The notes beneath the pieces are model-generated. The model saw nothing but the letters and a program-made list of their open reading frames with translations. It ran no database searches and was not told the origin of the DNA. From contig DATEZQ010000001.1 in NCBI GenBank assembly GCA_035583355.1, forward strand, positions 10,566 to 74,565: a stretch of DNA of 64,000 bases. Direction: 5' to 3'. This DNA comes from Minisyncoccota bacterium. GTDB taxonomy: Bacteria > Patescibacteriota > Minisyncoccia > Phycocordibacterales > UBA6899. The number at the start of each line of letters is the position of its first letter. Positions within the stretch are counted from its first letter, which is position 1. Shown one piece after another: positions 319 to 54,772 of the stretch. Both the position numbers and the translations under genes were made by a program.

Positions 319-1695
319 ATGCAATCCCCAAACTCATATATGAAGAGTGGTGTGCAGTTCGTTCGAGATAACCCTCAGCTTCTGTATACACTTTTCTTGC
401 TCGTTATTATTCCAATGGCTTTCGTTATTTCGAGCGAACAGTTTCTTGGAATTGCGCGAACTCAAAATGATAAGGCGGAGCAAGCGCGCGTCGGGCTACT
501 GCACGACGCGTTTGCTGCGTTTTTGCCAACTCAATTCGAGCCTGCGCTGATAGACGAGCATATCCGAAAGATTGCAGAGAAGAATGAGACAATCACCGGT
601 TTTGCAGTGCTCGAGGAATTGGAATCCGCAACAAGTTCCACATATCAAGTTGTTGGGTCGCTCAACAAGCAGGAGATTCCCCTGGGGGAATATCTTCCTG
701 ATCCGACGACTGCAGCACTTATGCGTTTTGCGCTTGCAAATCCAGATCAATCACTTACGTTGGAGTTTACAAAGAGCGCAGTACGGCAATGGAAAACTGC
801 TCGTGTTATTCCACATCCTCATGATGGTGTTGCGCGTGCCTATGTAGTTACTGATGTCTCAATGTCGCAGAGCGATGCAGTATTGCAGGGTAACATTCGC
901 GCTGCATATGCATCACTTGCACTCATTATTGCGCTTATTATTGTTTTGCTTGCGCGGCAGGCTCGCATCGTTGATTACGCGACACTCTATAAGAAACTTG
1001 AAGAAGTGGACAAGATGAAGGATGACTTCGTTTCTATGACTGCTCACGAGTTGCGCTCGCCATTAACGACCATCCGTGGCTATGCAGATCTGCTTAAGGA
1101 GGTACAGCATCTTTCACCCAAGGGTGAGGAGATGTTGTCGAACATCGATAGGTCTGCTCGCGACCTAAACGATCTGATCACAGACATCCTTGATGTCTCC
1201 AAGCTGCAAGAGGGACGAATGTCATTCAAGCTTGCACCACTTGCACCGGTTGCTGAATTGCGTGATGTTGTAGAAGCATTTAGAAAGCCTGCCGAAAGCA
1301 AAGGACTGACAATTGGACTCACTGTAGGAACATTGCCCGATCTCATGGTGGATAAAATGCGATTTCATCAAGTGCTTGTAAATCTAGTGGGAAATGCAGT
1401 GAAGTATACACCGAAGGGAAGCGTGACTCTTTCTGCTCGTTCAATCGATAGTGCGCATATGTGTGAGTTTCGCATTTCTGATACAGGTCTTGGTATCAGT
1501 GCCGAGGCGCAGCAAAAACTCTTTTCAAAATTCTACCGCGTAAAAACGAAAGAAACGGAGATGATTACAGGAACCGGACTTGGATTGTGGATTACCGCTG
1601 AAATCGTCAGGCAAATGCACGGAACCATTGCTGTAGAGTCTATCGAAGGTAAGGGTACTGACTTCATTGTCCGTTTCCCGATTGCGAGTGTATAG
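319..1695 (+). CDS. sensor histidine kinase
   Basis: HisKA motif MTAHELRSPLTTIRGYADLL, an HATPase_c region (GLGLWIT...GKGTDF) and an N-terminal TM segment. Confidence 0.85.
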   Translation: MQSPNSYMKSGVQFVRDNPQLLYTLFLLVIIPMAFVISSEQFLGIARTQNDKAEQARVGLLHDAFAAFLPTQFEPALIDEHIRKIAEKNETITGFAVLEELESATSSTYQVVGSLNKQEIPLGEYLPDPTTAALMRFALANPDQSLTLEFTKSAVRQWKTARVIPHPHDGVARAYVVTDVSMSQSDAVLQGNIRAAYASLALIIALIIVLLARQARIVDYATLYKKLEEVDKMKDDFVSMTAHELRSPLTTIRGYADLLKEVQHLSPKGEEMLSNIDRSARDLNDLITDILDVSKLQEGRMSFKLAPLAPVAELRDVVEAFRKPAESKGLTIGLTVGTLPDLMVDKMRFHQVLVNLVGNAVKYTPKGSVTLSARSIDSAHMCEFRISDTGLGISAEAQQKLFSKFYRVKTKETEMITGTGLGLWITAEIVRQMHGTIAVESIEGKGTDFIVRFPIASV

Positions 1696-1735
1696 TCAAT
1701 AATATTGATGTTTTAAGCCATATTTTGTTCAGTCG

Positions 1736-1760
1736 GGAAGCCACCACTTTGGTGGCTTCC
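1736..1760. other. 10-bp stem hairpin (ggaagccacc/ggtggcttcc) after the kinase gene, followed by a TATAAT -10 box at 1765-1770
   Basis: Perfect inverted repeat read directly. There is no T-run, so it may not be a classical intrinsic terminator. Confidence 0.4.
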
Positions 1761-3316: not shown

Positions 3317-4360
3317 ATGAATATTGTACAGCTTGAATCCGTTGCACGAGCGCTGGTCGCACCAGGAAAGGGAATCCTTGCCGCTGATGAATCAAGTGCA
3401 ACTGCCAATAAGCGTTTTGCCGCAGTCTATGTCACTCAAGATGAAGACCACCGTCGCACGTTCCGCGAGATACTTTTGACGACTCCTGATGCAGTCGGTA
3501 TCGTCTCAGGCGTGATCTTTTATGACGAAACATTCTGGGAGAAGGGTTCTTCGGGTGAGCTTTTTCGGGAATATTGCGCAAAACATGGAATAATCCCCGG
3601 CATAAAGGTGGATGAAGGTCTTACTGATCTCCCGGGTTTCCCTGGAGAGAAAGTCAGTAAAGGTCTCGATACTCTTCCTGAGCGTATACAGAAATATGCT
3701 GAAGCGGGTGCTCAGTTTGCGAAGTGGCGTTCCGTCATTGTCATTGGTGAAAAAATTCCTACTGATGCTTGTATCGCTGCGAACGCGTATGTGCTTGCGC
3801 GTTATGCTCGAATCTGTCAGGAGGCGGGTGTAGTGCCTATCGTTGAGCCTGAAGTGCTCTTTGATGGCAAACATACTTCCGAGCAATGTGAGGCTGTGAC
3901 GAGTCATGTTCTTGAGACACTCTTTGCCGCAATGCGTACCTACCGTGTACATTTCCCTGGTGCGATATTGAAGACAGGTATGGTCCTTCCAGGAAAAGAT
4001 TCTGGTATCCCTGTTGATGAGACTGATGTTGCAGATCGTACGGTGCGCACTTTGCGTACCCATGTGCCTCATGATATTGGGGGTGTGGTATTCCTTTCGG
4101 GTGGTCAGACACCACATCAGGCCTTTGCGAACTTGAATGCGATCGCGCAGCGTGGTCCACATCCTTGGGGATTGACCTTCTCTTATTCACGCGCACTTCA
4201 GGATCCAGTGTTGAAACATTGGGCAGTACATCAAACAGATATCGTCGGAGCGCAGTCGATTTTTGCACATCAGCTCAAGGTTGCACAAGCAGCACGATCG
4301 GGAAGTATGAGTGTGGCGGCGCATAGTGATGATTTCGTTTCCCACTCCCAAGACATGTAG
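3317..4360 (+). CDS. fba: fructose-bisphosphate aldolase, class I
   Basis: N-terminal GKGILAADES signature and overall class I aldolase similarity. Length 347 aa. Confidence 0.85.
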   Translation: MNIVQLESVARALVAPGKGILAADESSATANKRFAAVYVTQDEDHRRTFREILLTTPDAVGIVSGVIFYDETFWEKGSSGELFREYCAKHGIIPGIKVDEGLTDLPGFPGEKVSKGLDTLPERIQKYAEAGAQFAKWRSVIVIGEKIPTDACIAANAYVLARYARICQEAGVVPIVEPEVLFDGKHTSEQCEAVTSHVLETLFAAMRTYRVHFPGAILKTGMVLPGKDSGIPVDETDVADRTVRTLRTHVPHDIGGVVFLSGGQTPHQAFANLNAIAQRGPHPWGLTFSYSRALQDPVLKHWAVHQTDIVGAQSIFAHQLKVAQAARSGSMSVAAHSDDFVSHSQDM

Positions 4361-4569
4361 AAAACCGCATATTTCGGCGCATCTTGCCATGCTTCGGCGT
4401 GCGACTCGCTCACCGTAGAACACCTACGGCTCGCTAGAGTTCGCATACCTCCAGCATAGCAACCTGCATCCGAAATCTGCGTTTTTTTGTTATCTCAAAT
4501 ATATAAATCGAATACTGAAATATTTAAATATTTAAATATGTATTGGATTGCGTAATTAAAAAACCAAGA

Positions 4570-4737
4570 TCAACTGATCTCGGTATCTAGAGTAGGGGTC
4601 GCATCTGGAGCTGCACTGAAGACGCGGATTTGTCCGCAGCCTTTACATTTAATTTCCACCGTCGCCTCGACAAGATTGCCCTTGAAGAGCAATTTTCCGC
4701 AAGAACATTTGTGATTTTTGAGCTCTGTATCTTCCAT
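4570..4737 (-). CDS. small zinc-ribbon protein (Com-like CxxC...CxxC), 55 aa
   Basis: Translated manually as MEDTELKNHKCSCGKLLFKGNLVEATVEIKCKGCGQIRVFSAAPDATPTLDTEIS. It falls below the ORF-track length cutoff. It is divergently arranged with the Cys-rich gene at 4900. Confidence 0.45.
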   Translation of the reverse strand: MEDTELKNHKCSCGKLLFKGNLVEATVEIKCKGCGQIRVFSAAPDATPTLDTEIS

Positions 4738-4899
4738 GTTCATGAGTGTGCTCGCGTGCTAATAATATATACTATACCATCATATAGTAGTAAGACCTAT
4801 GCAGTCTGTGCACAGTTTTTGCACAGTAAGTGAGTGGGGGTCGACAAAAGCCATATTTTGATGTAGATTAAGTCCTCGTTCTTTTCTAAGGAGGTTCTT

Positions 4900-5400
4900 T
4901 TGAACCACGAACCACTCGTTGAAAGTTTTCCTTGTGTCGAACCTGGCTGTGAAGGCCTTGTCGACCCCTGCTCTGAGTTGGCCATTCGGCTCAACCCTGA
5001 GAAGTACGGCACCAAGAAGGGTGTTTGCTGCAATAGCTGCGCTCGCCTGTATGGAACGGATGGAGAGCCTGTGCTCAATATCGAATTCATGAAGGTGTTC
5101 ATTGCTGGCGGTAGACTCGAAGGCAGGGTGCTCACTGCAGTCGAAAAGTGCAATCTGGTCCGTAATGAGATCGGCAAGATGTGCGATGCTGAAACTCATG
5201 AGGAGAAGGAAGCGCATCGTCGTAATATCTTCGCGCTCTGCGGGGGAGAAGAAGCCTTCCTCGATAAGAAGAAGAGCATGGAGGGACATACGGCTGACTG
5301 CGAAGCAATCGAATACCGTGCGCCACACATGTGCAGCTGCGGTGTCACGCACACTCGTAACTGGTTCAGGGATCACGCGGATATGGCTGGAGAAGCCTAG
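4900..5400 (+). CDS. cysteine-rich hypothetical protein (TTG start)
   Basis: Strong SD aaggagg 6 nt upstream of the TTG at 4900. Several CxxC/CxnC clusters. Followed by the terminator at 5407. Confidence 0.55.
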   Translation: MNHEPLVESFPCVEPGCEGLVDPCSELAIRLNPEKYGTKKGVCCNSCARLYGTDGEPVLNIEFMKVFIAGGRLEGRVLTAVEKCNLVRNEIGKMCDAETHEEKEAHRRNIFALCGGEEAFLDKKKSMEGHTADCEAIEYRAPHMCSCGVTHTRNWFRDHADMAGEA

Positions 5401-5481: not shown

Positions 5482-6726
5482 ATGCGACAATCCCAATTAT
5501 TTACAAAGACGCGCCGAGAGGCGCCAAAGGACGAAGTAGCGAAGAACGCACAGCTTTTGCTGCGCGGTGGCTACATTTACAAGGAGATGGCAGGTGCATA
5601 CTGTTATCTCCCCATGGGATTGCGTGTGCTCAATAAGATCATGAACATCATCCGCGAGGAGATGGATGGTATTGGTGCACAGGAAATTCTTATGACCTCA
5701 TTGCAAGACAAGGCAATCTGGGAAGCAACCGGACGCTGGAGTGATGATGTTGTCGACAATTGGTTTAAGACGAAATTGAAGAGTGGTACTGAGGTTGGTC
5801 TTGCATTTACTTGTGAAGAGCCACTCACGAATCTCATGCGCGAGTATATACACTCACACCGCGATCTCCCAATGGCCGCATATCAGTTACAGACGAAGTT
5901 TCGCAATGAAGCACGTGCAAAGAGTGGTATTATGCGTGGACGCGAGTTTATCATGAAGGACGCCTATACGTTCTGCAAGAATGTTGAGGAGCACAATGTG
6001 GTCTACGAGCAGTATGCGGAGGCCTACATGCGCATCTTCACTCGTCTTGGACTTGGCGAGCTCACCTACAAGACATTTGCATCAGGCGGTTCATTTAGTA
6101 AGTATTCTCACGAATATCAGACAATCACGGAAGCCGGTGAGGATACTATCTTCATTAGTGATGAGAAACATATCGCAATCAATCATGAGGTCATGAATGA
6201 TGAGGTGCTCGCAGATCTCGGCGTGAAGCGTGAGGAGCTTCGTGAAGCTAATGCAGTTGAAGTGGGAAATATTTTCACCCTCGGCACTAAGTTCTCCGAT
6301 GCATATGATCTGAATTATGTGGACGAAGAGGGTCATCCTCAGCGAGTCTTTATGGGTTCGTATGGAATTGGGCCTGGGCGCGTCATGGGAACCATTGTTG
6401 AGGTACTTTCAGATGAGAAGGGTATCATATGGCCAGAATCGGTTGCGCCATTTATGTTCCACCTCATTGCGCTTGGTTATGATGATCCTGCGGTCAAGGA
6501 AGAGGCGGATAAGCTATATCATGCACTCCGCGCTCGTGGCATTGAAGTACTTCTTGATGACCGAGTTGGCCCTTCTGCGGGAGAGAAGTTTAATGATAGT
6601 GATCTTCTTGGTATGCCTAAGCGTGTCGTTGTTTCAAAGAAAACTATTGCCGCAGGAATGTATGAACTCAAGGATCGTAAGACTGGTGAAGTAAGTCAGA
6701 TTTCTCACAGTCAGCTTCTTGCATAA
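5482..6726 (+). CDS. proS: proline--tRNA ligase (short form lacking the editing insertion)
   Basis: MRQSQLFTKTRREAPKDEVAKNAQLLLRGGYI and class II aaRS motifs. I chose the internal ATG at 5482 as the start. Confidence 0.9.
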   Translation: MRQSQLFTKTRREAPKDEVAKNAQLLLRGGYIYKEMAGAYCYLPMGLRVLNKIMNIIREEMDGIGAQEILMTSLQDKAIWEATGRWSDDVVDNWFKTKLKSGTEVGLAFTCEEPLTNLMREYIHSHRDLPMAAYQLQTKFRNEARAKSGIMRGREFIMKDAYTFCKNVEEHNVVYEQYAEAYMRIFTRLGLGELTYKTFASGGSFSKYSHEYQTITEAGEDTIFISDEKHIAINHEVMNDEVLADLGVKREELREANAVEVGNIFTLGTKFSDAYDLNYVDEEGHPQRVFMGSYGIGPGRVMGTIVEVLSDEKGIIWPESVAPFMFHLIALGYDDPAVKEEADKLYHALRARGIEVLLDDRVGPSAGEKFNDSDLLGMPKRVVVSKKTIAAGMYELKDRKTGEVSQISHSQLLA

Positions 6727-6920: not shown

Positions 6921-7973
6921 ATGTTAATGGACCGCTTTCTTGGCTTTTCTGGCGCAGATATTGGTATCGATCTTGGTACGGCGAATACACTCGTCTATCT
7001 TCGTGACCACGGCATAATTATTGATGAGCCTTCGGTGGTTGCGGTCAATCAGAAAACGGGACGCGTTGTTGCGGTGGGTAGTGATGCAAAGCAGATGCTC
7101 GGGCGTACGCCAGGGCACATTGTTGCTATTCGTCCACTTGTAGGGGGAGTGATTTCTGACTTCGAGATTACTGAGGAGATGCTTGCACACTTCATCAATA
7201 AGGCGCAGCGACTTTCGAAGAAGCAGGGTCGTCCACGCGTTGTGATCGGTGTTCCAACACTTATCACTAATGTGGAGACGCGAGCGGTTCGTGATGCTGC
7301 GATGAATGCAGGTGCACGAGAGGTCTATATTGTCGAAGAGCCCATGGCTGCAGCGATTGGTATTCGACTTCCTGTCACAGAGCCTGTGGGTTCGATGATC
7401 ATCGATATTGGCGGAGGCACAACTGATATTGCAGTCATCTCTCTTGCTGGAATTGTGAATGCGAAGAACCTTAAAATCGCAGGGGATCGTTTCAATTCAG
7501 ATATTTCTTCATATATTCGGGATGAATTTAAGATTCTTATTGGTGAACGTACGGCAGAGGAGGTAAAGATTAAGATCGGTACTGCTACAAAGCCGAAGGA
7601 GCCTCGTGAGGCGGCAATTCGTGGACGCGATTTGCTCACCGGACTTCCACGTGAGGTAATCGTGACGGATATCGATCTCCGCGAAGCCCTCGCACCATCT
7701 CTTGCTGCGCTCGTTGAGGCGACTAAGGAAGTACTTGAGACGGCCCCACCAGAAATTCTTGCCGATGTGATGCATCGAGGAATCGTTATCGCAGGTGGCG
7801 GTGCACTTATTTATGGGTTGCCGGAACTTCTTGAACTCGCATTACATATTCCCGTCGTTACCGCAGATGAACCACTCACCGCAGTAGCACGTGGAACAGG
7901 TATCATCATTGAAAATTTGGATATGTATCGCGAAGTGCTCATCGAGCATGATAACGAACTTCCATCACGCTAG
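6921..7973 (+). CDS. mreB: rod shape-determining protein MreB
   Basis: Actin-like ATPase motifs (DIGIDLGTANTLVY, IDIGGGTTD) over the full length. Confidence 0.9.
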   Translation: MLMDRFLGFSGADIGIDLGTANTLVYLRDHGIIIDEPSVVAVNQKTGRVVAVGSDAKQMLGRTPGHIVAIRPLVGGVISDFEITEEMLAHFINKAQRLSKKQGRPRVVIGVPTLITNVETRAVRDAAMNAGAREVYIVEEPMAAAIGIRLPVTEPVGSMIIDIGGGTTDIAVISLAGIVNAKNLKIAGDRFNSDISSYIRDEFKILIGERTAEEVKIKIGTATKPKEPREAAIRGRDLLTGLPREVIVTDIDLREALAPSLAALVEATKEVLETAPPEILADVMHRGIVIAGGGALIYGLPELLELALHIPVVTADEPLTAVARGTGIIIENLDMYREVLIEHDNELPSR

Positions 7974-11541: not shown

Positions 11542-13005
11542 ATGGCATCACTTGAAGAAATTCGCACCGAGCGTCTGCGCAAGCACGCACTCCTCCTTGA
11601 GAAGGGAATGAATCCATATCCTTCGAAAGTCCCTCGTACGCATGCAGTAAGTGCAGTGCGCGCAAATTTTGCAGACCTCGAATCAAAGGCAGCGATCGTT
11701 GCGCTCGCGGGACGTGTCATGGCCATTCGTGGTCAGGGCGCCATTCAGTTCGTTGTGCTCGATGACGGTACGGGTACATTCCAGGCCGTCATGAAGCGTG
11801 ACACGCTCGGAGAGGAGAAGATGGATTTCTTCGGCGCTACTGTAGACATGGGTGATTTTATCTCTGTAACCGGAACCGTATTTACCACGCAGCGTGGTGA
11901 GGCAAGTATCCTTGTGACCGACTGGGTCATGGCAAGCAAGTCATTGCTCCCACTCCCTGATAAGTGGGGTGGACTCCAGGACGAAGAAGAAAAGCTGCGT
12001 AAGCGCTACCTCGATATTCTGACAAATGCAGAATTGAAGGATCTTTTCATCAAGAAGTCAAAGTTCTGGCAGGCAATGCGTTCATTCCTTATCAATGAGG
12101 GTTATCTCGAAGTCGAGACTCCGATTATCGAAGTGACAACGGGAGGAGCGGATGCTCGTCCATTTGCCTCACATCACTGGGCACTTGATATCCCTGTCTT
12201 TAACCGCATTTCTGCCGGTGAGCTGTGGCAGAAGCGCCTCATGGTCGCAGGTTACCCAAAGACCTTCGAGATTGGACGCATCTTCCGTAATGAGGGCATG
12301 AGTCCAGAGCACGCACAGGACTATACACAGATGGAGTGCTATGCAGCTTGGGAGAATTTCGAAGAGGGAATGCAGTTCGTGGAGCGTCTCTACCGCCATG
12401 TTGCGAAGGAGGCATTCGGGACCGAGCAATTCACCATTCGTGGTTTCGATATCGACCTCAGTAAGCCATGGGCACGCTACGACTACACGGAGACTATTCA
12501 TCGTATGACTGGTGTCCATATCGTGACGGCTACCCAGGAAGAACTCGATGCAAAGCTCAAGGAGCTTGGTGTGCGTTTCGACCCCAAGGGCTGGAATCGT
12601 ATGCGTGCGATTGATAATCTTTGGAAGTGGTGCCGCAAGCAGATTGCAGGACCAGGATTCCTTATTAATGCACCTGTGGAGATGGCTCCACTTGCGAAGG
12701 TTGCAAAGGATGGCAAGACCGTTGAGATGTACCAGCCAATCATCGCGGGAAGCGAGGTAGGTCGTGGATACAGTGAGCTCAATGATCCTATTGATCAGCG
12801 ACAACGATTCACGGAGCAGCAAGGTATGCGTGATGCAGGTGATGAGGAGGCACAGATGGCGGACTGGGAGTTCGTCGAAGCGCTAGAGCATGGTATGCCA
12901 CCTACATCAGGTTTCGGCGTCTCGGAGCGTTTGTTCTCATTTTTGGCAGATAAGCCAATTCGCGAAGCCCAGCTTTTCCCACTGGTGAAGCCAAAGATAG
13001 ATTAG
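11542..13005 (+). CDS. lysS: lysine--tRNA ligase (class II)
   Basis: OB-fold N-terminal domain, class II aaRS motifs and the GMPPTSGFGVSERL C-terminal motif. Confidence 0.9.
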   Translation: MASLEEIRTERLRKHALLLEKGMNPYPSKVPRTHAVSAVRANFADLESKAAIVALAGRVMAIRGQGAIQFVVLDDGTGTFQAVMKRDTLGEEKMDFFGATVDMGDFISVTGTVFTTQRGEASILVTDWVMASKSLLPLPDKWGGLQDEEEKLRKRYLDILTNAELKDLFIKKSKFWQAMRSFLINEGYLEVETPIIEVTTGGADARPFASHHWALDIPVFNRISAGELWQKRLMVAGYPKTFEIGRIFRNEGMSPEHAQDYTQMECYAAWENFEEGMQFVERLYRHVAKEAFGTEQFTIRGFDIDLSKPWARYDYTETIHRMTGVHIVTATQEELDAKLKELGVRFDPKGWNRMRAIDNLWKWCRKQIAGPGFLINAPVEMAPLAKVAKDGKTVEMYQPIIAGSEVGRGYSELNDPIDQRQRFTEQQGMRDAGDEEAQMADWEFVEALEHGMPPTSGFGVSERLFSFLADKPIREAQLFPLVKPKID

Positions 13006-13008
13006 AAA

Positions 13009-13040
13009 TAAAACACCGTCTAAAGATGGTGTTTTTCTTT
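13009..13040 (+). terminator. intrinsic terminator after lysS
   Basis: aaacacc-gtctaaaga-tggtgttt followed by a T-run. Confidence 0.7.
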
Positions 13041-29867: not shown

Positions 29868-29920
29868 ACACTATAGTATAGCATAGGTGGAGAAGGATAG
29901 TGGGAGAGGGGGATTCAAGG

Positions 29921-30217
29921 AAGATGCTAGAGAGTGATACGCAGAGATATCTCACGAGCTTTGCTCGCGCACCCTAAAGGGGCCCGCACGGCCAGGCTCC
30001 TCGATTTCATTACATGAACGGTACACCTTTTGGACCTTTTGTATCGAAGACTCACAAAAGTCCTCAAAAGGTCTTGCTCTCTCGCTCCCATAAGAATGGG
30101 ACCCATGAGCAAGAGCTCACCCACGGTTCTCGACGGAACCTCTTCGAGGTTCCTGCTTTCCTCCACGGGAGAGGTGTCCCTCTCCCGACCCCTTCTCCGT
30201 TCGATTCTCTGTAGGGA
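29921..30217. ncRNA. candidate structured RNA/repeat element R1, paired with R2 at 52722-52884; strand not determinable
   Basis: Aligns to the reverse complement of 52722-52884 with conserved blocks and compensatory changes: GGAACCTC-TTCG-GAGGTTCC here vs GGAG-cctacaaga-CTCC there. Other shared helices are cgggagagg-tgtc-cctctcccg and the GCTTTGC helix, here carrying a ~170-nt insertion. The termini CAGAGA...TCTCTGTAGGGA copy the T-stem and acceptor of the adjacent tRNA-Glu. Confidence 0.4.
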
Positions 30218-30269
30218 TTCACAAAATAGAAAAACCTCCCAAGCTTTGCTTGAGAGGTTTTTCATTTTG
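30218..30269. terminator. bidirectional terminator at the centre of a ~45-bp-arm inverted repeat that includes the tRNA-Glu 3' end
   Basis: aaaaacctcccaagc-tttg-cttgagaggttttt. The arms extend outward to gttcgattctctgtaggg on both sides. Confidence 0.65.
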
Positions 30270-30341
30270 TGACCCTACAGAGAATCGAACTCTGATTTAA
30301 GGCTTGAGAAGCCTCCGTCCTAACCGTTAGACGATAGGGCC
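30270..30341 (-). tRNA. tRNA-Glu (anticodon CUC)
   Basis: Manual cloverleaf of GGCCCTATCGTCTAACGGTTAGGACGGAGGCTTCTCAAGCCTTAAATCAGAGTTCGATTCTCTGTAGGGTCA. 7-bp acceptor, D and T arms, anticodon loop TTCTCAA. CCA is not encoded. Confidence 0.8.
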
Positions 30342-30614
30342 AGTCGCTGCGCGAACCAGGCTGGCCATTTTGCTAGAGGAATCGGCCACCGCCGATACAT
30401 TTCCTCGCGCCTTTCTCGCAAAACCTCGTAAGGCTGTCGCAATAGGGCCAATGACATTTCTGAGTTCTTGCTAGTCTGTTTCCTTTCTCACAGAGCCCCG
30501 AAGGGCTTTGCAATAAGGGTTACGGGCAACCACAATTCAGCAGAAAAGTGATCAGCTCGTTCGAATATCATAGCAGATTATTCAAGTTTGTAAAGTGCTA
30601 AAAGGGGTGTAGTA

Positions 30615-49336: not shown

Positions 49337-49777
49337 ATGAAATACACCGAATATCTCCAGTCGCTTGATCATGATAAGTGCCCGTTCTGTGATCCGGGGC
49401 AGCGTGTCTATCGCAAGAATGATGCTGCATATCTCACGTACGCGCTTGCGCCGTATCATCGCCATCATCTACTCATCATACCGAATCGCCACGTGCTCTC
49501 TCTGCTCGAAATGAGTGACGAGGAGAGTGCGCAGCTCTGGCACCTCATTAAGGAGGGTATGCAAACGATGCGTAGTCTTGGATATGAGAATCTCTCAGTG
49601 CTCGTACGCGAGGGGGAGGTGGGTGCGATTAAGTCTGTTGCGCATCTGCATTACCACATCATCCCGAATCATCGTATTGGTGACCTCGACATCAATGGCG
49701 AGGCGCGCAAGATATTAACTGAAGAGGAAGTGGAGGCGATAAGCAATGAGTTGCTTGCCGTCATGCCACAAGATTAA
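49337..49777 (+). CDS. HIT-family (histidine triad) protein
   Basis: HLHYHII histidine triad. Confidence 0.8.
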   Translation: MKYTEYLQSLDHDKCPFCDPGQRVYRKNDAAYLTYALAPYHRHHLLIIPNRHVLSLLEMSDEESAQLWHLIKEGMQTMRSLGYENLSVLVREGEVGAIKSVAHLHYHIIPNHRIGDLDINGEARKILTEEEVEAISNELLAVMPQD

Positions 49778-49814
49778 AAATAGCCACAAGGCTGTTTTTT
49801 GTTATACTGGACAT

Positions 49815-50579
49815 ATGAAAAAGCGAGCAGTTATCGTGACAGGCGGAGGTCGGGGTTTGGGGCGTATTATCGCGGAGCGCCTCGTTGAGAGCCTTAACGT
49901 CTTCATCGTCGGCCGTACGGAATCCGATCTAAGAGACACCTGCTCAGCTCTAAAGGCAAAAGGCCATGAAGCAGCATATTTTGTCGGGGATGTTTCTCTG
50001 CCTACTACTGCAGACAATGCTATTGCAGCACTCGAGGAACTCGGTTGGGATATTGCTGCGCTTGTCTGTAATGCAGGTATAGGGAAGAGCAGGCCGACCC
50101 ATGAGCTAGAGAATGCAGAGTGGCAACATATTCTTGATGTAAATCTCAACGGAAGTTTCTATTTCAGTAAAGCAGTATTGCCACTGATGAAAGAGCAGAA
50201 GTCGGGAGTACTCTGTTTCATCAGTAGTATCGCAGGAGTGCGAGGATATGCATATGAGGCTGCGTATGCCGCAAGCAAGCATGCAGTTGTTGGCTTAGCA
50301 AAAAGTATTGCAGCAGAGTATGGCAAGCATGGTATTGTGTCCGTTGCGCTCTGTCCGAATTTCATTGACGGTGAGATGACGGAGCGCACGATAAATGGAC
50401 TCGCGCAGCGACGTGGCATAACTGCACAGGAAGCGAGGGAAGTCATCGAGCAAGCGAATCCACAGAAGCGCATCATTCCACCGGAGGAAGTTGCGGAAAT
50501 GGTCGCCAATATTTGTACGAATAAAGTTCCATTGCTAAGTGGCACTGCGATAGTTATGGGAGGTGGAGGAGAACTATGA
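49815..50579 (+). CDS. SDR-family oxidoreductase
   Basis: TGGGRGLG cofactor motif and YxxxK (YAASK). Confidence 0.85.
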   Translation: MKKRAVIVTGGGRGLGRIIAERLVESLNVFIVGRTESDLRDTCSALKAKGHEAAYFVGDVSLPTTADNAIAALEELGWDIAALVCNAGIGKSRPTHELENAEWQHILDVNLNGSFYFSKAVLPLMKEQKSGVLCFISSIAGVRGYAYEAAYAASKHAVVGLAKSIAAEYGKHGIVSVALCPNFIDGEMTERTINGLAQRRGITAQEAREVIEQANPQKRIIPPEEVAEMVANICTNKVPLLSGTAIVMGGGGEL

Positions 50580-51241
50580 ACAAACAAAAAACAATTGACA
50601 CCCTGATTGCGTGGCTCGCAGAAAAAATTCCCGCAGGTGGCGGGATTCTTGTGCCAGTGAGCGGAGGCTCTGATAGCGCACTGAGTTTTTGGTTGAGCGC
50701 TCAGAAGTTAAAGGCACAGACGAAGGCAGTGTATATTGGCGAGAACCTGCGAAATAAAGAATGGTTTGATATGCTCGGAGCTGTCTCACTCGATACTGTT
50801 GATTTTGGGAAGAATAATCCTGAGGTGGGGAGATGGGCATATTTCCTCACACTCTGCCTCGAAGAGAATCGCGTGCTCGTCGGCTCTCGTAATCGCACCG
50901 AGATGTACTTGGGGACCTTTAGCAATGCGAGCCGCGTTTCCGCGCTGCTTCCACTTGCGGGTCTGTGGAAGAGCGAAGTGATGGAGCTCTGCAAATATGT
51001 TGGTGTGCCTGAAGATATTATTATATCGAGCAACCGTGCAGATCCTGAATGTGGACGCCCTGAAACGATGGCGGATATTTCACATGATGTCGTGGACCGA
51101 TTCTTGCAGACAAAACTCGGGCTTCCTGTGGGTGAGGGACTCTGTGAACCTACCGAAGCACAGCGCGCATATCTTGAGACGGTATATATGCAGAATCGAC
51201 ATAAGGCGCAGCTTCCATTCATAGGTCCCGAGGCAATATAG
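50576..51241 (+). CDS. nadE: NAD+ synthetase-like PP-loop ATPase
   Basis: PP-loop SGGSDS and GSRNRTEMYLGTFS resemble the NadE nucleotide-binding blocks. Confidence 0.65.
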   Translation: MNKQKTIDTLIAWLAEKIPAGGGILVPVSGGSDSALSFWLSAQKLKAQTKAVYIGENLRNKEWFDMLGAVSLDTVDFGKNNPEVGRWAYFLTLCLEENRVLVGSRNRTEMYLGTFSNASRVSALLPLAGLWKSEVMELCKYVGVPEDIIISSNRADPECGRPETMADISHDVVDRFLQTKLGLPVGEGLCEPTEAQRAYLETVYMQNRHKAQLPFIGPEAI

Positions 51242-52274: not shown

Positions 52275-52413
52275 AAGTATATTCTAACATGGGGAAGAAA
52301 GTCGAAAGTAAAAAATGAATAATTATACAAGAGTCTAGTAATCTTATTATATTTGTGATATAACAGGACAGTTCAAATAGAATTTAAAGGCAGGAACTGC
52401 TTAGATAATTGAA

Positions 52414-52596
52414 TATTACGGGATCGTCTAAAGGTAAGAATAGCCCTATGGGCACCAGGTATTCTTGCCCGATAGAGAGTCGCCACCGCGACCCTGATCA
52501 ACTCACGCCTTCGCAGGCTCAGTCGTTCACGGGTAGGAAAGAGGCCGGCCTCCGTCCGGCTCTCCGTAAGTATTGAATTGTTTTTAAATATAGTAT
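52414..52596 (+). repeat. partial duplication of the tRNA-Gln 5' region followed by a ~155-nt structured pseudo-tRNA-like segment
   Basis: tattacgggatcgtctaaaggta at 52414-52436 is identical to 52594-52616, the start of the true tRNA. The downstream part contains a T-arm-like GCCGG-CCTCCGT-CCGGC and CTCCGTA. Confidence 0.55.
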
Positions 52597-52667
52597 TACG
52601 GGATCGTCTAAAGGTAGGACAGAGGCCTTTGAAGCCTTTAATCTTGGTTCGATTCCAAGTCCCGTAG
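52597..52667 (+). tRNA. tRNA-Gln (anticodon UUG)
   Basis: Manual cloverleaf of TACGGGATCGTCTAAAGGTAGGACAGAGGCCTTTGAAGCCTTTAATCTTGGTTCGATTCCAAGTCCCGTAG. Anticodon loop CTTTGAA. CCA is not encoded. Confidence 0.8.
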
Positions 52668-52721
52668 CAATGGCCAAAAAGAACGCGAAAGCGTTCTTTT
52701 TGTTTGCCATTGCTAACGGGA
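52668..52721. terminator. bidirectional terminator at the centre of a ~43-bp-arm inverted repeat that includes the tRNA-Gln 3' end
   Basis: aaaaagaacgc-gaaa-gcgttcttttt. The arms extend through agcaatggcc/gccattgct to ttcgattccaagtcccgt on both sides. Confidence 0.65.
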
Positions 52722-52884
52722 CTTGGAATCGAACGGAGAGGGGTCGGGAGAGGAATACCTCTCCTGTGCAGGAAAGCAGGAGTCTTGTAGGCTCCGTCGA
52801 GAACCGTGGGTTCTTGAAGAGCTTTGCTGTGCGAGGCTCCTCTGGAGTGCGCACGCAAAGCGAGTGAGATATCCAAGCCCCATA
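52722..52884. ncRNA. candidate structured RNA/repeat element R2, paralog of 29921-30217
   Basis: Conserved blocks with R1 (see R1). Terminal helix GGGGCTTGG/CCAAGTCCC, or GGGACTTGG/CCAAGCCCC on the other strand. The termini copy the tRNA-Gln T-stem and acceptor. Confidence 0.4.
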
Positions 52885-53005
52885 GCAGTTTGAAGAAATT
52901 TCTGTTTCGGAACACGGCACATCAATGTAACACATTGATTAGTACAATTTTTACACTATGTGATACTATATGTGTATTTATGTAACTAATAATGAATTAA
53001 GTAAT

Positions 53006-54772
53006 ATGCAGCAAAAACAAGAATTCGCTTTGCGTAAACTAGAGGAAGAAATTTCCGCTAAGATCCTATCCGTTTCGCAGCAAGTCCGAACCGCAAGAAC
53101 AGCTGAACAGTTTTTTGATTTGACATGCGAGCTCTATGCAGTGGTTGAAAAGATGAAAAATGAGAATCTGCTCTGGGTCGGTAATAAAACAAATTACCCA
53201 GTTCTGTTTTTGAGTGCGGTATTGAGAAATGAGACGATTCAGAGAGAGTTGATAAGGGTTACTGAGGAGGAAGAAGGAATATATGATCAAGCCATCATCT
53301 CAAATACAAATCTTGAGTCCAAGCTATTAATACGAACATCATTACTGTTAGCATTCATGCCAATAGCAGTTGGGTTAGAATCTCTAGAGGAGGTGAATAT
53401 AGTTTTCTATAGAAAGGTTATAAATGATGCACTTAAGGAGGCCATCAGAAATTCGCAATCAAATATTTCTATAATTAGCGTCTGCTTTAAGATTGAAGGT
53501 ATTATAAAGACAAAAGATTATTTTCATGGAACATCTTCATTACTAATAGATGTTGGCGCTTTGTTCGAAGTATTAAAACTGTCAAGAATTTTATGTGGGA
53601 TATCGTCCGCGGCAATGCCAGTTACGCAAATATTGGCAGCACAGTTTTCCAAGTCAAATGAAAAAATTCTGTCATTTGAACTAAATTTGTCCGAAATCCT
53701 TTCAAGTGTTTATAGTTCAATTTTCAAAGTTAGTCGCAGTATTGAATATTATATAAACACTCCTGTTGACGAAAGCTCAATTCGTGAAGTTGGAAGGTAT
53801 AGTGATTTGTATCAAACTTCAAACGAAAAAAACCTAATTTTCTTTCTGGAAAAGATCTCTTCAGATTTTAACTTCCAAGAGGGTAGGAGATTTTATGAAG
53901 TAATGATCTCAAAAATTAGTTCAGCCGATTCTCTTCGACTTGAGTTGGTGGATTTTGCAACAAAACACCTTAGCGGATTCCGCGGTGATATAAGCGAGGA
54001 TCATGGTGAGTGGTCGAATAAGGTATTTATTACTTCCCTTAGACTTCTATCAGTTCTGTCTGTGATAAATTTAGCAAAAGATTCGAGATGGAAAGTGTCT
54101 ACGTCGGTTAGGGAGTATGTAAGATGGCTTGAGGAAGTTCATGGAATAATTAACAAATATTCTCTTGAGGATGACTGGTCTGCTATTTCTGATTTTGTTG
54201 ATGATGAAACGTCTGAGATTGAATGGAAGTCAACATTTTTTACACCAACAGAGCAAATGTATTCTTCTAAAGAATCAGATTCTTTAGTTAGTAGAAGTAT
54301 ATTTGGCAAAATATCAAAAACAGTATTGGGGATGATGAATACTTCAGGCGGAACTATTCTCGTTGGACTTGTAGAAAACCCGAAATTAATCATACGAGCT
54401 GATATTTCCGAGAAGTTAATATGCAAAAATGGAAAAACATTTTATGATGTCGGTTATGAACTAAGTCAGATTGGTAGGTCTCTTGATAGTGTTAGGCTTC
54501 AAATGCTTGAAAATTTGAAGAATATGACGGATGAGTCATCGGAAAAATTTAATGATCTTTTCACATTTATTCCTTTGCAAATTAAGTCGGGAGGCGCTTC
54601 GGTTACAATTGTAAAAATTCAGATTAAAAAAGGGGCTAGAAAGTTCTATTCAGTTAAAAAAGAAAATAATTCAGTTTGGATTTCTCTAGCAATGCGTGCT
54701 ATGGGGCAGACGATAGATGTAGATGTCAGGGATTACCTTCCTGAAGGAGATATAGAAAAGGCTCAGGATTAA
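53006..54772 (+). CDS. large hypothetical protein with Schlafen/AlbA_2-like domain, in an AT-rich island
   Basis: EIEWKSTFF...VLGMMNTSGGTILVGLVEN resembles the AlbA_2 (PF04326) signature. About 400 aa of N-terminal sequence has no known domain. Local GC is visibly lower than the flanks. ATG at 53006 is preferred over 52970. Confidence 0.55.
   Translation: MQQKQEFALRKLEEEISAKILSVSQQVRTARTAEQFFDLTCELYAVVEKMKNENLLWVGNKTNYPVLFLSAVLRNETIQRELIRVTEEEEGIYDQAIISNTNLESKLLIRTSLLLAFMPIAVGLESLEEVNIVFYRKVINDALKEAIRNSQSNISIISVCFKIEGIIKTKDYFHGTSSLLIDVGALFEVLKLSRILCGISSAAMPVTQILAAQFSKSNEKILSFELNLSEILSSVYSSIFKVSRSIEYYINTPVDESSIREVGRYSDLYQTSNEKNLIFFLEKISSDFNFQEGRRFYEVMISKISSADSLRLELVDFATKHLSGFRGDISEDHGEWSNKVFITSLRLLSVLSVINLAKDSRWKVSTSVREYVRWLEEVHGIINKYSLEDDWSAISDFVDDETSEIEWKSTFFTPTEQMYSSKESDSLVSRSIFGKISKTVLGMMNTSGGTILVGLVENPKLIIRADISEKLICKNGKTFYDVGYELSQIGRSLDSVRLQMLENLKNMTDESSEKFNDLFTFIPLQIKSGGASVTIVKIQIKKGARKFYSVKKENNSVWISLAMRAMGQTIDVDVRDYLPEGDIEKAQD

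Follow-up and report, generated by a model that had tools for sequence, protein, structure and literature searches.

Transfer RNA genes are classic landing sites of mobile DNA, and the known users of these sites are integrase-bearing islands and phages. Tyrosine-integrase islands and prophages use the 3′ part of the tRNA from the T-loop onward and leave an intact tRNA gene, a displaced direct copy of the tRNA end and variable genes nearby. The structured repeats of bacteria (REP/REPIN, ERIC/IRU, pneumococcal BOX, Correia and other MITEs) are short, multi-copy elements without an ORF that sit behind genes at terminators, fold as palindromes on either strand, show paired changes in their stems, internal hairpin insertions, mosaic similarity and decay, and have any mobility enzyme encoded elsewhere in the genome; MITEs fold as one long hairpin. 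Integron attC sites, at which gene cassettes recombine through a folded single strand, form one imperfect hairpin of 57-141 nt that carries extrahelical bases, and are found in arrays and with IntI; group IIC introns insert behind terminators, carrying a domain V/VI ribozyme core and usually a reverse transcriptase ORF. Among RNAs, the omega/re-RNAs of IS200/IS605 elements (TnpB, IscB) and the IS110 bridge RNA join a constant scaffold to a segment that depends on the insertion site, and the tmRNA tRNA-like domain, mascRNA, viral tRNA-like structures and YrlA have a tRNA-like end with acceptor and T stem sequence.

The element described here has likenesses to all of these structured repeats, islands and RNAs, the comparisons being drawn from established knowledge. 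In the window, the 64,000-nucleotide stretch of DNA that was analysed, which comes from a Candidatus Paceibacterota (CPR) genome present in SRR5133178 and SRR5177929, its two copies R1 and R2 are paralogs of one conserved four-hairpin element, a terminal helix closing each, and the tRNA-Glu and tRNA-Gln genes of the window are each followed by one copy. It shares with the structured repeats all the properties listed above, but lies behind tRNA genes, has a four-hairpin junction core rather than one long hairpin, and has terminal repeats that are copied from the local tRNA rather than constant; we know of no partner transposase. Like the tRNA islands it uses the tRNA end from the T-loop onward and leaves a direct copy of it, but this ‘island’ is about 200 nt, lacks an integrase, has a core that recurs at five tRNA identities and adds an inverted copy of the tRNA end that is palindromic with the terminator. 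The scaffold and site-dependent segments recall the guide RNAs, except that here the site-specific segments pair with each other, and no TnpB, IscB or IS110 recombinase gene lies beside any copy. The acceptor and T stem sequence recalls the tRNA-like domains, although the element is without a complete T-arm, tag ORF, G3·U70 or D-loop analogue and its T-loop copy is paired in several copies. As in attC, stem structure is kept over sequence and single variable genes are adjacent, in one genome (L027) with a gene between two copies, but no single imperfect hairpin, array or IntI was seen. In a CPR lineage with reduced genomes, most of the tRNA genes sampled are followed by this small conserved four-hairpin element, whose ends are rebuilt for each tRNA. 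Whichever of the readings considered below holds, it is absent from Rfam, and the family is undescribed.

A conserved four-hairpin core

The original prediction placed two related elements in the window and aligned them block by block; both loci and the alignment were confirmed (Table 1). The 18-mer CCCACGGTTCTCGACGGA has exactly two occurrences in the window against a chance expectation of 0.02, which agrees with the earlier view that this is no random repeat. Beyond the window, three other Paceibacteria contigs hold five more copies; a phmmer search of a representative library, with a spurious ORF across R2 as the source of the query peptide, gave two matches that led to further copies. Seven copies, drawn from four genomes, make up the covariation alignment. 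A core of about 130 nt is conserved in each, the whole element being about 165 nt, and the covariance model built for it detects intact copies cleanly at 85-182 bits. R2 scores 180 bits over 52718-52882, and R1 gives two matches, 29937-30046 (37.7 bits) and 30060-30216 (101.7 bits). A metagenome scan returned one genuine but truncated copy (L015). A three-block pattern search of genome contigs gave chance matches in coding regions only, three scans of viral contigs gave chance matches or none, and R2 had no counterpart in BLAST searches of phages and plasmids.

Table 1. Features of the two copies and of their tRNA neighbours, in positions of the window
Feature	Coordinates	Strand	Basis or remark
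R1, rearranged copy	29936..30219		faces tRNA-Glu on + strand reading; covariance model and alignments
R1 far arm GATACGCAGAGATA and block TATCTCAC	29936..29955		block is the diverged T-loop complement
R1 H1 5′ strand and conserved tip hairpin GCGCAC-CCC-TAAA-GGG-GCCCGCAC	29956..29989		
R1 extra segment, 117 nt	29990..30106		missing from every other copy; own hairpins
R1 H1 3′ strand GAGCAAGAGCTC, then H2 loop and 3′ strand ACC-CAC-GGTTCTCGA	30107..30134		
R1 H3 GGAACCTC-TTCG-GAGGTTCC	30135..30153		‘hairpin 1’ of the original prediction
R1 conserved junction TGCTTTCCTCCA	30154..30165		
R1 H4 CGGGAGAGG-TGTC-CCTCTCCCG	30166..30187		‘hairpin 2’ of the original prediction
R1 conserved tail ACCCCTTCTCC, then near arm GTTCGATTCTCTGTAGGG	30188..30219		
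Hairpin common to tRNA-Glu and R1, A-tract and T-tract each side	30220..30268		terminator scan, both strands
tRNA-Glu(CTC)	30269..30341	-	ARAGORN and Rfam, 62 bits
tRNA-Gln(TTG)	52597..52668	+	ARAGORN and Rfam
Terminator-like hairpin common to tRNA-Gln and R2	52669..52710		inverted repeats I1, I2, I10
R2, intact copy	52711..52887		faces tRNA-Gln on - strand reading; covariance model
R2 conserved tail GACCCCTCTCC, then near arm GTTCGATTCCAAGTCCCGTTAGCA	52711..52745		
R2 H4 AGGAGAGG-TATT-CCTCTCCC	52746..52765		
R2 H3 GGAG-CCTACAAGA-CTCC	52779..52795		
R2 H2 TCAAGAACC-CAC-GGTTCTCGA	52797..52817		
R2 H1, two-tier helix GCTTTGC ... GTGCG-CA-CTCC-AGA-GGAG-CCT-CGCAC ... GCAAAGC	52821..52861		
R2 far arm TGCTATGGGGCTTGGAT and block ATCTCAC	52864..52887		

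On either strand the core folds into four hairpins, H1 to H4, with largely conserved junctions and almost purely Watson-Crick helices, at folding z-scores of -5.4 to -6.3. Across the seven copies the pairings are kept in 90.7% of cells, against 33-52% with the partners slid, and both sides have changed in 29 of the 48 base pairs, against 8-12 with the partners slid, a count reached by none of 500 shuffles; the compensatory changes reported from the window copies are thus genuine. The helices of the original prediction are real and covarying, its hairpin 1 being H3 (GGAACCTC-TTCG-GAGGTTCC in R1 against GGAG...CTCC in R2), its hairpin 2 H4, and its GCTTTGC/GCAAAGC helix H1. The terminal helix that it drew is likewise real (CAGAGA/TCTCTG in R1, CTTGG/CCAAG in R2). 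Two of its details have to be redrawn. The 18-mer had been taken as single-stranded, but most of it belongs to H2, a fourth hairpin, of which it supplies the loop and 3′ strand (AGAACC-CAC-GGTTCT, against GAGGACC-GAC-GGTCCTC in L010), and the loop of about 180 nt given to R1 is really a 117-nt extra segment within a rearranged H1/H2 region. No second copy of this segment was found in the window or the fetched loci. R1 also lacks the 5′ strand of H2 and is a damaged copy. In the junction between H3 and H4, CTGC..TC.T is invariant across the seven copies and the remaining positions vary.

Most reading frames across the element are open, several of them on both strands and without stop codons, and gene callers place predicted ORFs over it. 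The only relatives of these ORFs in 1.84 billion representative proteins are, however, two other spurious ORFs over copies of the element, and the changes are paired across stems rather than codon-like, so that the original prediction was right to set a protein-coding repeat aside. Known RNA families fare no better. Rfam 15 at the gathering threshold gave tRNAs only in the window and five related loci, and in E-value mode the two loci gave nothing but spurious matches of miRNA-hairpin, leader and small-RNA models to the palindrome and its flanks, all scoring far under the gathering thresholds (for example ylbH, 30 of 50 bits); no known family was matched in either mode. A tmRNA was rejected, there being no local T-stem 5′ strand, no tag ORF and no ARAGORN prediction, and the RNase P-like GAGGAAAG is a mere 8-mer resemblance. 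HEARO and related models had no Rfam match, nor had the group II intron models, the element being about 165 nt and without an ORF. A riboswitch or leader of the downstream gene was dismissed, as the downstream genes are mutually unrelated. With these results, coding sequence, chance repetition and membership in a known RNA family (tmRNA, RNase P RNA, SRP RNA, 6S RNA, riboswitch, ribozyme) are already refuted.

Arms copied from the local tRNA

The order is invariable: the tRNA gene, a terminator-like hairpin spacer of 42-52 nt, then the element. The near arm, directly past this hairpin, repeats the last 19-24 nt of the adjacent tRNA in inverted orientation, and the far arm repeats that stretch in direct orientation and is the more decayed of the two; together they form inverted repeats of 6-18 bp whose sequence tracks the local tRNA, be it tRNA-Glu, Gln, Arg, Phe or Ser. 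The near arm scores 19-24 of 24 against its own tRNA and 6-13 against other tRNAs. That of R1, in which the tRNA-Glu T-loop, T-stem 3′ strand and acceptor 3′ strand are inverted, scores 19/24 against 6-10 for non-Glu tRNAs, and that of R2, the inverted tRNA-Gln 3′ end (inverted repeat I1), scores 20/24 against 7-10. The acceptor-like arms of these two copies of one genome differ. Far arms score 7-18 of 24 against the cognate tRNA, and the own tRNA is best in five of six copies, with Phe a near-tie and the window Glu copy tying with Ser. On the tRNA strand the far arm and adjoining block of R2 read as a direct copy of the tRNA-Gln 3′ end (TCCAAGCCCCATAGCA), the arm scoring 12 against its cognate and 3-5 against other tRNAs; those of R1 repeat the tRNA-Glu 3′ end (GATATCTCTGCGTATC) in direct orientation but in decayed form, the arm scoring only 7/24. 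The equivalent of the R1 block TATCTCAC is GAATCGAAC in L027 and GAGTCGAAC in L026.

As the own-tRNA arm scores highest, the earlier observation that the terminal helix follows the neighbouring tRNA holds. Its equation of this helix with the T-stem is too narrow, the T-stem being matched but the match spanning the last 19-24 nt, and its statement that there is no T-arm was half right: there is no local T-stem 5′ strand, but the T-loop and the T-stem 3′ strand are copied. At Phe and Ser the copied T-loop is base-paired throughout, within a terminal helix of 14-18 bp, which rules out a functional T-loop mimic. A split or permuted tRNA assembled from an upstream 5′ copy and the element was rejected because the element is self-closing and upstream copies are absent at the L026 loci, and a link to GluRS, of which both window tRNAs are substrates, is ruled out by the copies at Arg, Phe and Ser.

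A single palindrome of about 95 nt takes in the tRNA 3′ end, the near arm and, at its centre, the terminator-like hairpin between them (30196-30293 at the Glu locus, 52642-52739 at the Gln locus). At the Glu locus the hairpin is G+C-rich with a T-run on both strands, and by these sequence marks it probably behaves as a bidirectional intrinsic terminator. Its Gln counterpart was not flagged in a simple terminator scan because the T-run lies within the stem.

Integrase-borne tRNA islands are bounded on the far side by a direct repeat of the tRNA 3′ end, and the element could be the remnant of a classical integrase-mediated integration into tRNA genes. The far arm would then be the displaced original 3′ end (attR), the present 3′ end and terminator would be element-derived (attL), and the core would be leftover attP arms with recombinase binding sites. 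The repeat does bound the insert in every copy, its length not fixed but running from about 14 nt up to 78 nt. It is longest in L010, where the core is flanked on both sides by an entire 78-nt unit of tRNA end, terminator and inverted arm and the direct repeat is perfect over 14 nt, continuing through the terminator; this looks like an insertion with a duplicated target. At the L026 tRNA-Arg gene the T-stem has an A·C mismatch of which the inverted arm carries the mismatching base, whereas the far arm retains a pairing-competent base, and the genes past the far arm are variable, some of them defence-like. Against this, none of the seven copies contains an integrase or has one nearby, the repeats enclosing only the spacer of 42-52 nt, the near arm and the core; a single core occurs at five tRNA identities, whereas attP carries the sequence of one tRNA; the inverted arm is foreign to att sites; and compensatory upkeep of hairpins is unexpected in decaying scars. 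We regard such a remnant as improbable.

Strand and transcription

The original prediction held that the strand cannot be assigned because both fold, and this remains so, R2 folding well on either (z = -5.6 and -5.4). Pairs of the G·U type in the internal helices are split 5 vs 5 between the strands in 226 pairs, a small sample from seven related copies, against 18 vs 2 in a control of 17 tRNAs from the same loci. Prediction of sigma-70-like promoters found none for either strand of the element and did detect tRNA promoters. An intrinsic terminator lies past the element in the anti-tRNA direction.

These results bear on the most serious rival to the reading preferred below, unlikely as we hold it to be, namely a genuine gene for a structured non-coding RNA, or a piece that is processed from the tRNA transcript. 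Read in the anti-tRNA direction, such an RNA would end at the common terminator with a 3′ end identical to that of the tRNA. On the tRNA strand it would be made by terminator read-through; its terminal helix would then mimic the stack of acceptor and T stems, allowing excision by RNase P, RNase Z and the CCA-adding enzyme. The core would then serve a tRNA-linked function, for example as decoy, scaffold or guide. The strong covariation in four hairpins with largely conserved junctions argues for this view, as do the folding z-scores, the terminator in the anti-tRNA direction, the presence of a copy beside tRNA-Glu in three related genomes (window, L009 and L010) and the carriage of a copy by six of the seven sampled tRNA genes. 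In L010, moreover, a second full terminator lies past the element in the tRNA direction, and the far arm ends GGGTCA exactly as the tRNA does. The tRNA-Glu copy in three genomes, the conserved junctions and the near-universal carriage would also fit a host function, and a five-way junction with conserved loops is more typical of functional RNAs than of MITEs; these points tell against the selfish repeat preferred below. The even split of G·U pairs, the lack of a predicted promoter on either strand, the decaying copies, the lack of a recurrent protein gene alongside and the paired T-loop copy at Phe and Ser, unable to act as a T-loop, all count against an RNA gene. Of the structured-RNA signature claimed in the original prediction, structure and compensatory change therefore stand, but RNA is not established, given the G·U counts, the missing promoter and the decay of copies. 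Were it an RNA, it would represent a new class of tRNA-linked RNA with locus-specific arms.

Occurrence and decay behind tRNA genes

The reading that we prefer, at a probability of roughly 45%, is that of a non-autonomous selfish repeat with tRNA 3′ flanks as its target, active at the level of DNA or on either strand. The multi-copy palindromic repeat, which in some Paceibacteria occupies the 3′ flanks of tRNA genes, would have spread to, or been retained at, the terminator flank of many different tRNA genes. This choice is made because of the association with tRNA genes, first of all. In a census of about 126 kb from element-bearing genomes (the window, L024, L016, L028 and L027) there are seven tRNA genes and seven copies; six of the seven tRNA genes have a copy 42-52 nt past the 3′ end and six of the seven copies are next to a tRNA, the covariance model finding none elsewhere in this set. 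It is made also because five tRNA identities are involved with arms matching the local tRNA, because the compensatory helices lack a G·U strand bias and a promoter on either strand, and because of the duplicated flank of L010 and the mismatch pattern of L026-Arg. The argument from G·U is weakened in that it rests on seven related copies only.

Birth and decay of copies speak for the same preference. Besides the damaged R1, L027 has a second copy that is degraded, with mismatched arms and no adjacent tRNA, and of the L015 fragment beside tRNA-Ser only H4, the tail and the near arm remain. The similarity between copies is mosaic: R1 and R2, in one genome at different tRNAs, have 82% of the core in common, R1 and its positional ortholog in L010 have 76% in common, and the 5′ half of R2 agrees at 65 of 72 positions with a copy that adjoins tRNA-Arg in a different genome. 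Variable genes past the far arm and contig breaks at the element or palindrome are further reasons for this preference. We infer that the element moved from tRNA gene to tRNA gene, the folded single strand, whether DNA or either transcript, being recognised by an enzyme encoded elsewhere. The inverted arm could be the product of fold-back copying over the terminator hairpin, or of palindrome correction there, and the direct arm could be a target duplication or the displaced original tRNA end. The alternative that the original prediction had put in brackets, an RNA-based mobile element, is upheld in its second half only: the findings agree better with mobility than with an RNA gene of the classical sort, and no sign of an RNA basis for any mobility was seen. 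If mobile, the element would point to an undescribed mechanism of targeting and duplication, and would explain assembly breaks and rearrangements at the tRNA loci of metagenome-derived genomes.

Counting against a selfish repeat of this kind, no transposase, integrase, reverse transcriptase or HUH enzyme was found in the 64-kb window or adjacent in any other locus, and neither an empty site nor an insertion polymorphism was seen among the copies examined. The window likewise has no related IS or transposase that a MITE would require, and no Y1 (HUH) transposase gene of the REPIN/RAYT type. Multiple copies and the lack of an ORF are as in MITEs, but the arms are not constant between copies, and such copy-to-copy differences are unlike the result of a transposase recognising fixed ends.

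A bolder form of mobility would be a self-propagating structured nucleic acid that homes to the universally conserved T-loop and the terminator flank of any tRNA gene, its arms built from the target by fold-back copying; this would be a novel mode of target choice and repair. Alternatively its transcript would be a programmable RNA, with a four-hairpin scaffold and tRNA-specific arms of about 20 nt, and an enzyme encoded elsewhere might process, protect, repair or cut that tRNA or its gene. We consider either quite unlikely.

The slightest chance among the readings still standing is given to a host feature of tRNA loci that acts at the DNA level and is not selfish. Candidates would be a reinforced terminator or insulator shielding tRNA genes from convergent transcription, or a folded-DNA site for cassette insertion like attC. 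Constraint symmetric between the strands agrees with this, as do the L010 core with terminators on both sides, the single variable genes right behind the element, the L027 gene between two copies and the orientation of the whole module, which is inverted between the window and L010. A conserved core of 130 nt, however, is more than a terminator needs; an attC site forms one imperfect hairpin and comes in arrays or together with an integron integrase, and neither setting was seen here; and a gene is flanked by two copies at one locus only.

Some observations concern the surroundings of the copies. A 20-nt direct repeat at 52344 and 54777, framing the tRNA-Gln/Schlafen-like block, was dismissed as no more than the chance expectation. 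Short-read contigs end at the element or the palindrome. Past the far arm there are extra small genes in L009 and L010, and beyond that of R2 a single low-GC Schlafen/AlbA_2-like gene. The ORF between the two copies of L027 is GIY-YIG-like.

Copies of the element beside tRNA genes

The window is chromosomal DNA from a Candidatus Paceibacterota (CPR/Patescibacteria) metagenome-assembled genome, with housekeeping genes (MreB, MreC, penicillin-binding proteins, Mur ligase, DnaB, RecR, L21, pyruvate kinase, two class II aminoacyl-tRNA synthetases), and no transposase, integrase or reverse transcriptase was found across its 64 kb. It contains only two tRNA genes, and the two elements of the original prediction, R1 and R2, adjoin exactly these; a gene for an HlyD-like protein adjoins R1, and its product is 100% identical to an NCBI protein listed under Candidatus Paceibacterota. 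Elsewhere, a short-chain dehydrogenase ORF overlaps an NAD-synthase-like ORF by 4 nt; the closest relatives in the databases, at 41-46% identity, have the two as one fused protein of ~480 aa.

Positions of features in the window and in contigs of related genomes or metagenomes (L handles); the strands of R1 and R2 are those on which the two align
Feature	Sequence	Position	Strand	Adjoining tRNA
R1	window	29936-30219	+	tRNA-Glu
R1 extra segment	window	29990-30106		
tRNA-Glu(CTC)	window	30269-30341	-	
tRNA-Glu promoter	window	30594-30567		
R2	window	52711-52887	-	tRNA-Gln
tRNA-Gln(TTG)	window	52597-52668	+	
Dehydrogenase ORF	window	49746-50579		
NAD-synthase-like ORF	window	50576-51241		
Schlafen/AlbA_2-like gene	window	52970-54772		
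Element copy	L026	5056-5218		tRNA-Arg
tRNA-Arg(CCT)	L026	5261-5333		
GIY-YIG-like ORF	L027	5333-5647	-	
Shorter-family copy	L015	about 1600-1760		behind tRNA-His
Shorter-family copy	L015	about 5525-5640		before tRNA-Val
Shorter-family copy	L018	about 11950-12050		behind tRNA-Asp
Shorter-family copy	L026	about 7135-7260		behind tRNA-Gly

Through relatives of the HlyD-like protein beside R1, copies were located on the contigs L010/L016 (67% protein identity), in which an identical tRNA-Glu is followed by an intact copy, and L009 (73%), whose end falls within the 5' end of a copy, and a metagenome pattern scan found a truncated copy adjoining tRNA-Ser in L015. Gene callers predict a spurious 138-aa ORF over R2; among 1.84 billion representative proteins its peptide matched only itself and two other spurious ORFs, the contigs of which (L026/L028 and L027) hold four further copies, three adjoining tRNA-Arg(CCT), tRNA-Phe and tRNA-Ser(GCT) and the fourth degraded and without adjacent tRNA. 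A covariance model trained on three copies gives every intact copy 119-182 bits and the degraded second copy of L027 85 bits, and it detects R1 as two pieces of 102 and 38 bits; the L009 fragment apart, it gave no other credible match in all fetched loci, the rest being sub-threshold at 15 bits or less. Searches of phage, plasmid, viral-contig and species-representative genomes were without yield, and no description of the element was found in the literature searched.

Fold, arms and palindrome

The proposed block-by-block alignment of R1 with R2 is confirmed, and an 18-mer common to both, CCCACGGTTCTCGACGGA, occurs twice where 0.02 occurrences are expected. For R2 as for the L010 copy, both strands fold much better than shuffled controls (z = -5.4 to -6.3), and each strand gives the same fold, in which four hairpins, H1-H4, radiate from a junction closed by the terminal helix P1. 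The three helices and terminal helix originally described are all present, while the block then called single-stranded is mostly the fourth hairpin, H2 (AGAACC-CAC-GGTTCT in the window, GAGGACC-GAC-GGTCCTC in L010). In an alignment of seven copies, drawn from four genomes, P1 and H1-H4 are all recovered by RNAalifold, and 90.7% of cells hold standard pairs, against 33-52% with slid partners. The compensatory changes first noticed between two copies extend to this alignment: 29 of 48 pairs are altered on both sides, against 8-12 with slid partners, and none of 500 shuffles attains any of the five pairing measures. H3 varies in length, and there is full or almost full conservation of the H1 tip, the H2 loop and the junctions (CTGCTYTCCT, CGACCC). 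Whether formed by RNA or by single-stranded DNA, the fold is real, and protein coding, a chance repeat and the known RNA families are excluded. By eye, the pyrimidine tail before the T-loop copy covaries with the H4 3' strand (30166-30198; 52765-52735; the same region in other copies), the partners being CCTCTCC with CCTCTCC, GTTTTCC with TTTTCC, and CCTTTCC with CCTATCC. Because the two change in step, the H4 purine strand might pair with one or the other, or enter a triple helix.

On the tRNA strand the order at every locus is tRNA positions 1-53, the T-loop with the 3' strands of T-stem and acceptor (A), a hairpin, the near arm (A'), the core and the far arm (A*). A' is the reverse complement of A, and A* a direct, more decayed copy. 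Out of 24, the near arm scores 19-24 with its own tRNA and 6-13 with the five others; the far arm matches its own tRNA best in five of six cases, with a near-tie for Phe, and that of the window Glu copy ties with Ser. The arms thus follow the neighbouring tRNA as originally claimed, but are not limited to its T-stem, since T-loop and acceptor 3' strand are copied too. A and T tracts border the intervening hairpin (42-52 nt) on either side, and at the Glu locus the terminator scan classes it as intrinsic on both strands. A, hairpin and A' make a ~95-nt palindrome, which is why Rfam in E-value mode gives spurious miRNA matches; the scan against Rfam returned no family match to the element, and ARAGORN bears out the stated absence of tmRNA. 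The conserved window block GATATCTCAC is a diverged T-loop complement, its equivalents being GAATCGAAC in L027 and GAGTCGAAC in the L026 tRNA-Phe copy. There P1 is a 14-18 bp helix incorporating the T-loop copy, which therefore cannot function as a T-loop. In L010 a 78-nt unit (tRNA end, terminator and inverted arm) is entire on both sides of the core, and in the window the second unit is still traceable in decayed form. At the L026 tRNA-Arg the T-stem has an A·C mismatch (GTAGG/CCCGC); the inverted arm reproduces the mismatching base and the far arm, CCTGC, would pair perfectly, as expected if the far arm were the older copy and the palindrome were homogenised as a unit.

Probable exchange between sites and the nature of the element

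A single core type lies behind five different tRNA identities, and these sites must therefore have been reached secondarily. Between R1 and R2, which share a genome but not a tRNA, the cores are 82% identical; between R1 and the L010 copy, at the same tRNA, the figure is 76%. Of 72 positions in the 5' half of R2, 65 agree with the tRNA-Arg copy of a different genome, and the H1 tip of R1 is of the L026 tRNA-Phe type, so the copies are mosaics. Between the window (29868-30614) and L010 (3281-4000), the block that runs from promoter and leader through tRNA-Glu and palindrome to the element has opposite orientations with respect to the HlyD-like and methyltransferase genes. Short-read contigs of this genome and its relatives terminate at element or palindrome, which evidently break up assemblies at tRNA loci; the ends of L007, L008, L009, L011/L017 and L018 lie inside an element or directly at a tRNA 3' end.

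Directly beyond the far arm lie strain-variable genes, including extra small genes in L009 and L010. The 600-aa gene directly behind R2, with a weak Schlafen/AlbA_2 match, is a single-gene patch of 35-38% G+C in surroundings of 46-49%; it looks horizontally acquired and is possibly defence-related. Between the two L027 copies is a 104-aa ORF with a GIY-YIG motif (Pfam E = 0.0013, below cut-off), and its neighbours (3749-4943) encode SMEK_N/CTD10, MC6 and DUF2326 domains, typical of conflict systems.

The internal helices are 93% Watson-Crick, with 5 G·U-type pairs on each strand among the 226 counted; the same count in 17 tRNAs from these loci gives 18 sense to 2 antisense. The promoter scan found a good match for tRNA-Glu, conserved in L010, and candidates for tRNA-Gln, and none on either element strand. 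Copies are dispensable, since R1 is rearranged (a 117-nt extra segment, the H2 5' strand lost, a far-arm score of only 7 of 24), the second L027 copy is degraded with arms not matching each other, and the L015 copy is reduced to H4, tail and near arm. The R1 segment has its own long hairpin (ACCTTTTGGACCTTTTGT...ACAAAAGTCCTCAAAAGGT) and no second copy in the window or any fetched locus. The structured-RNA reading of the original prediction thus stands as to the fold, while balanced G·U pairs, the lack of a predicted promoter and dispensability speak against a classical one-strand RNA gene, suggestively and not decisively, since the seven copies are related.

We favour a non-autonomous selfish repeat in the terminator flank of tRNA genes, its folded single strand being the recognised form (probability about 0.45). 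Fold-back copying across the terminator hairpin, or quasi-palindrome correction there, may give rise to the inverted arm; the direct arm may be either a duplicated target or the original tRNA end in a displaced position. Against this, no mobility enzyme was identified, no empty site was seen among the sampled loci, junction sequences are largely conserved across genomes and six of seven sampled tRNA genes have a copy. For these reasons we retain, as a serious though less probable alternative, a functional RNA; it would either have a gene of its own that ends at the shared terminator or be made by read-through, its terminal helix then mimicking the acceptor and T stems.

The selfish repeat would be comparable in kind to REPIN, ERIC, BOX and MITE sequences, differing in its four-hairpin core, exclusive tRNA association and arms built from the target. 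Its working features are found both in structured intergenic repeats and in tRNA-gene integration, and that it is something more unusual than these seems improbable. It belongs to no Rfam family, is neither a tmRNA nor a group IIC intron, and differs from strict MITEs in its inconstant ends and from integrase-borne islands in having no integrase and many tRNA identities. Integrase scars are an improbable origin, and a DNA-level role for the host is slightly less probable again.

Other repeats flanking tRNA genes

A second, shorter tRNA-flanking family has four copies with a common fold and 8 compensated pairs. Its order on the tRNA strand is the inverted tRNA end, AAAG-ACGGAG, GCGAG.C.GGGTCG, an A/T-rich hairpin, TGACC and a direct tRNA-end copy; the motifs GGGGTCG and CGGAG are common to it and the R1/R2 element. 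The tRNA-Glu gene has a long transcribed leader within 30342-30600, from the promoter TTTACA-16-TATGAT. The leader's last 110 nt open with a copy of the gene's first 10 nt (GGCCCTATTG, about 30442-30451), match L010 in blocks of 88-91% identity and are similar to the element before the L015 tRNA-Val; a ~70-nt extra stretch of this region is missing from L010. Upstream of tRNA-Gln, a 33-nt direct repeat (52407-52439 and 52587-52619, 180 nt apart, 88% identical) duplicates the gene's first 21 nt and 12 nt of upstream flank, and the sequence between the two has no folding advantage over shuffled controls (z = -1.25). In L018, tandem units of ~85-100 nt precede tRNA-Thr(CGT) (about 6012-6200) and tRNA-Met (about 12860-13040), each unit starting with a copy of the downstream tRNA's first 9-10 nt (GCCGCCTTAG..., GCTGGCGTA...).
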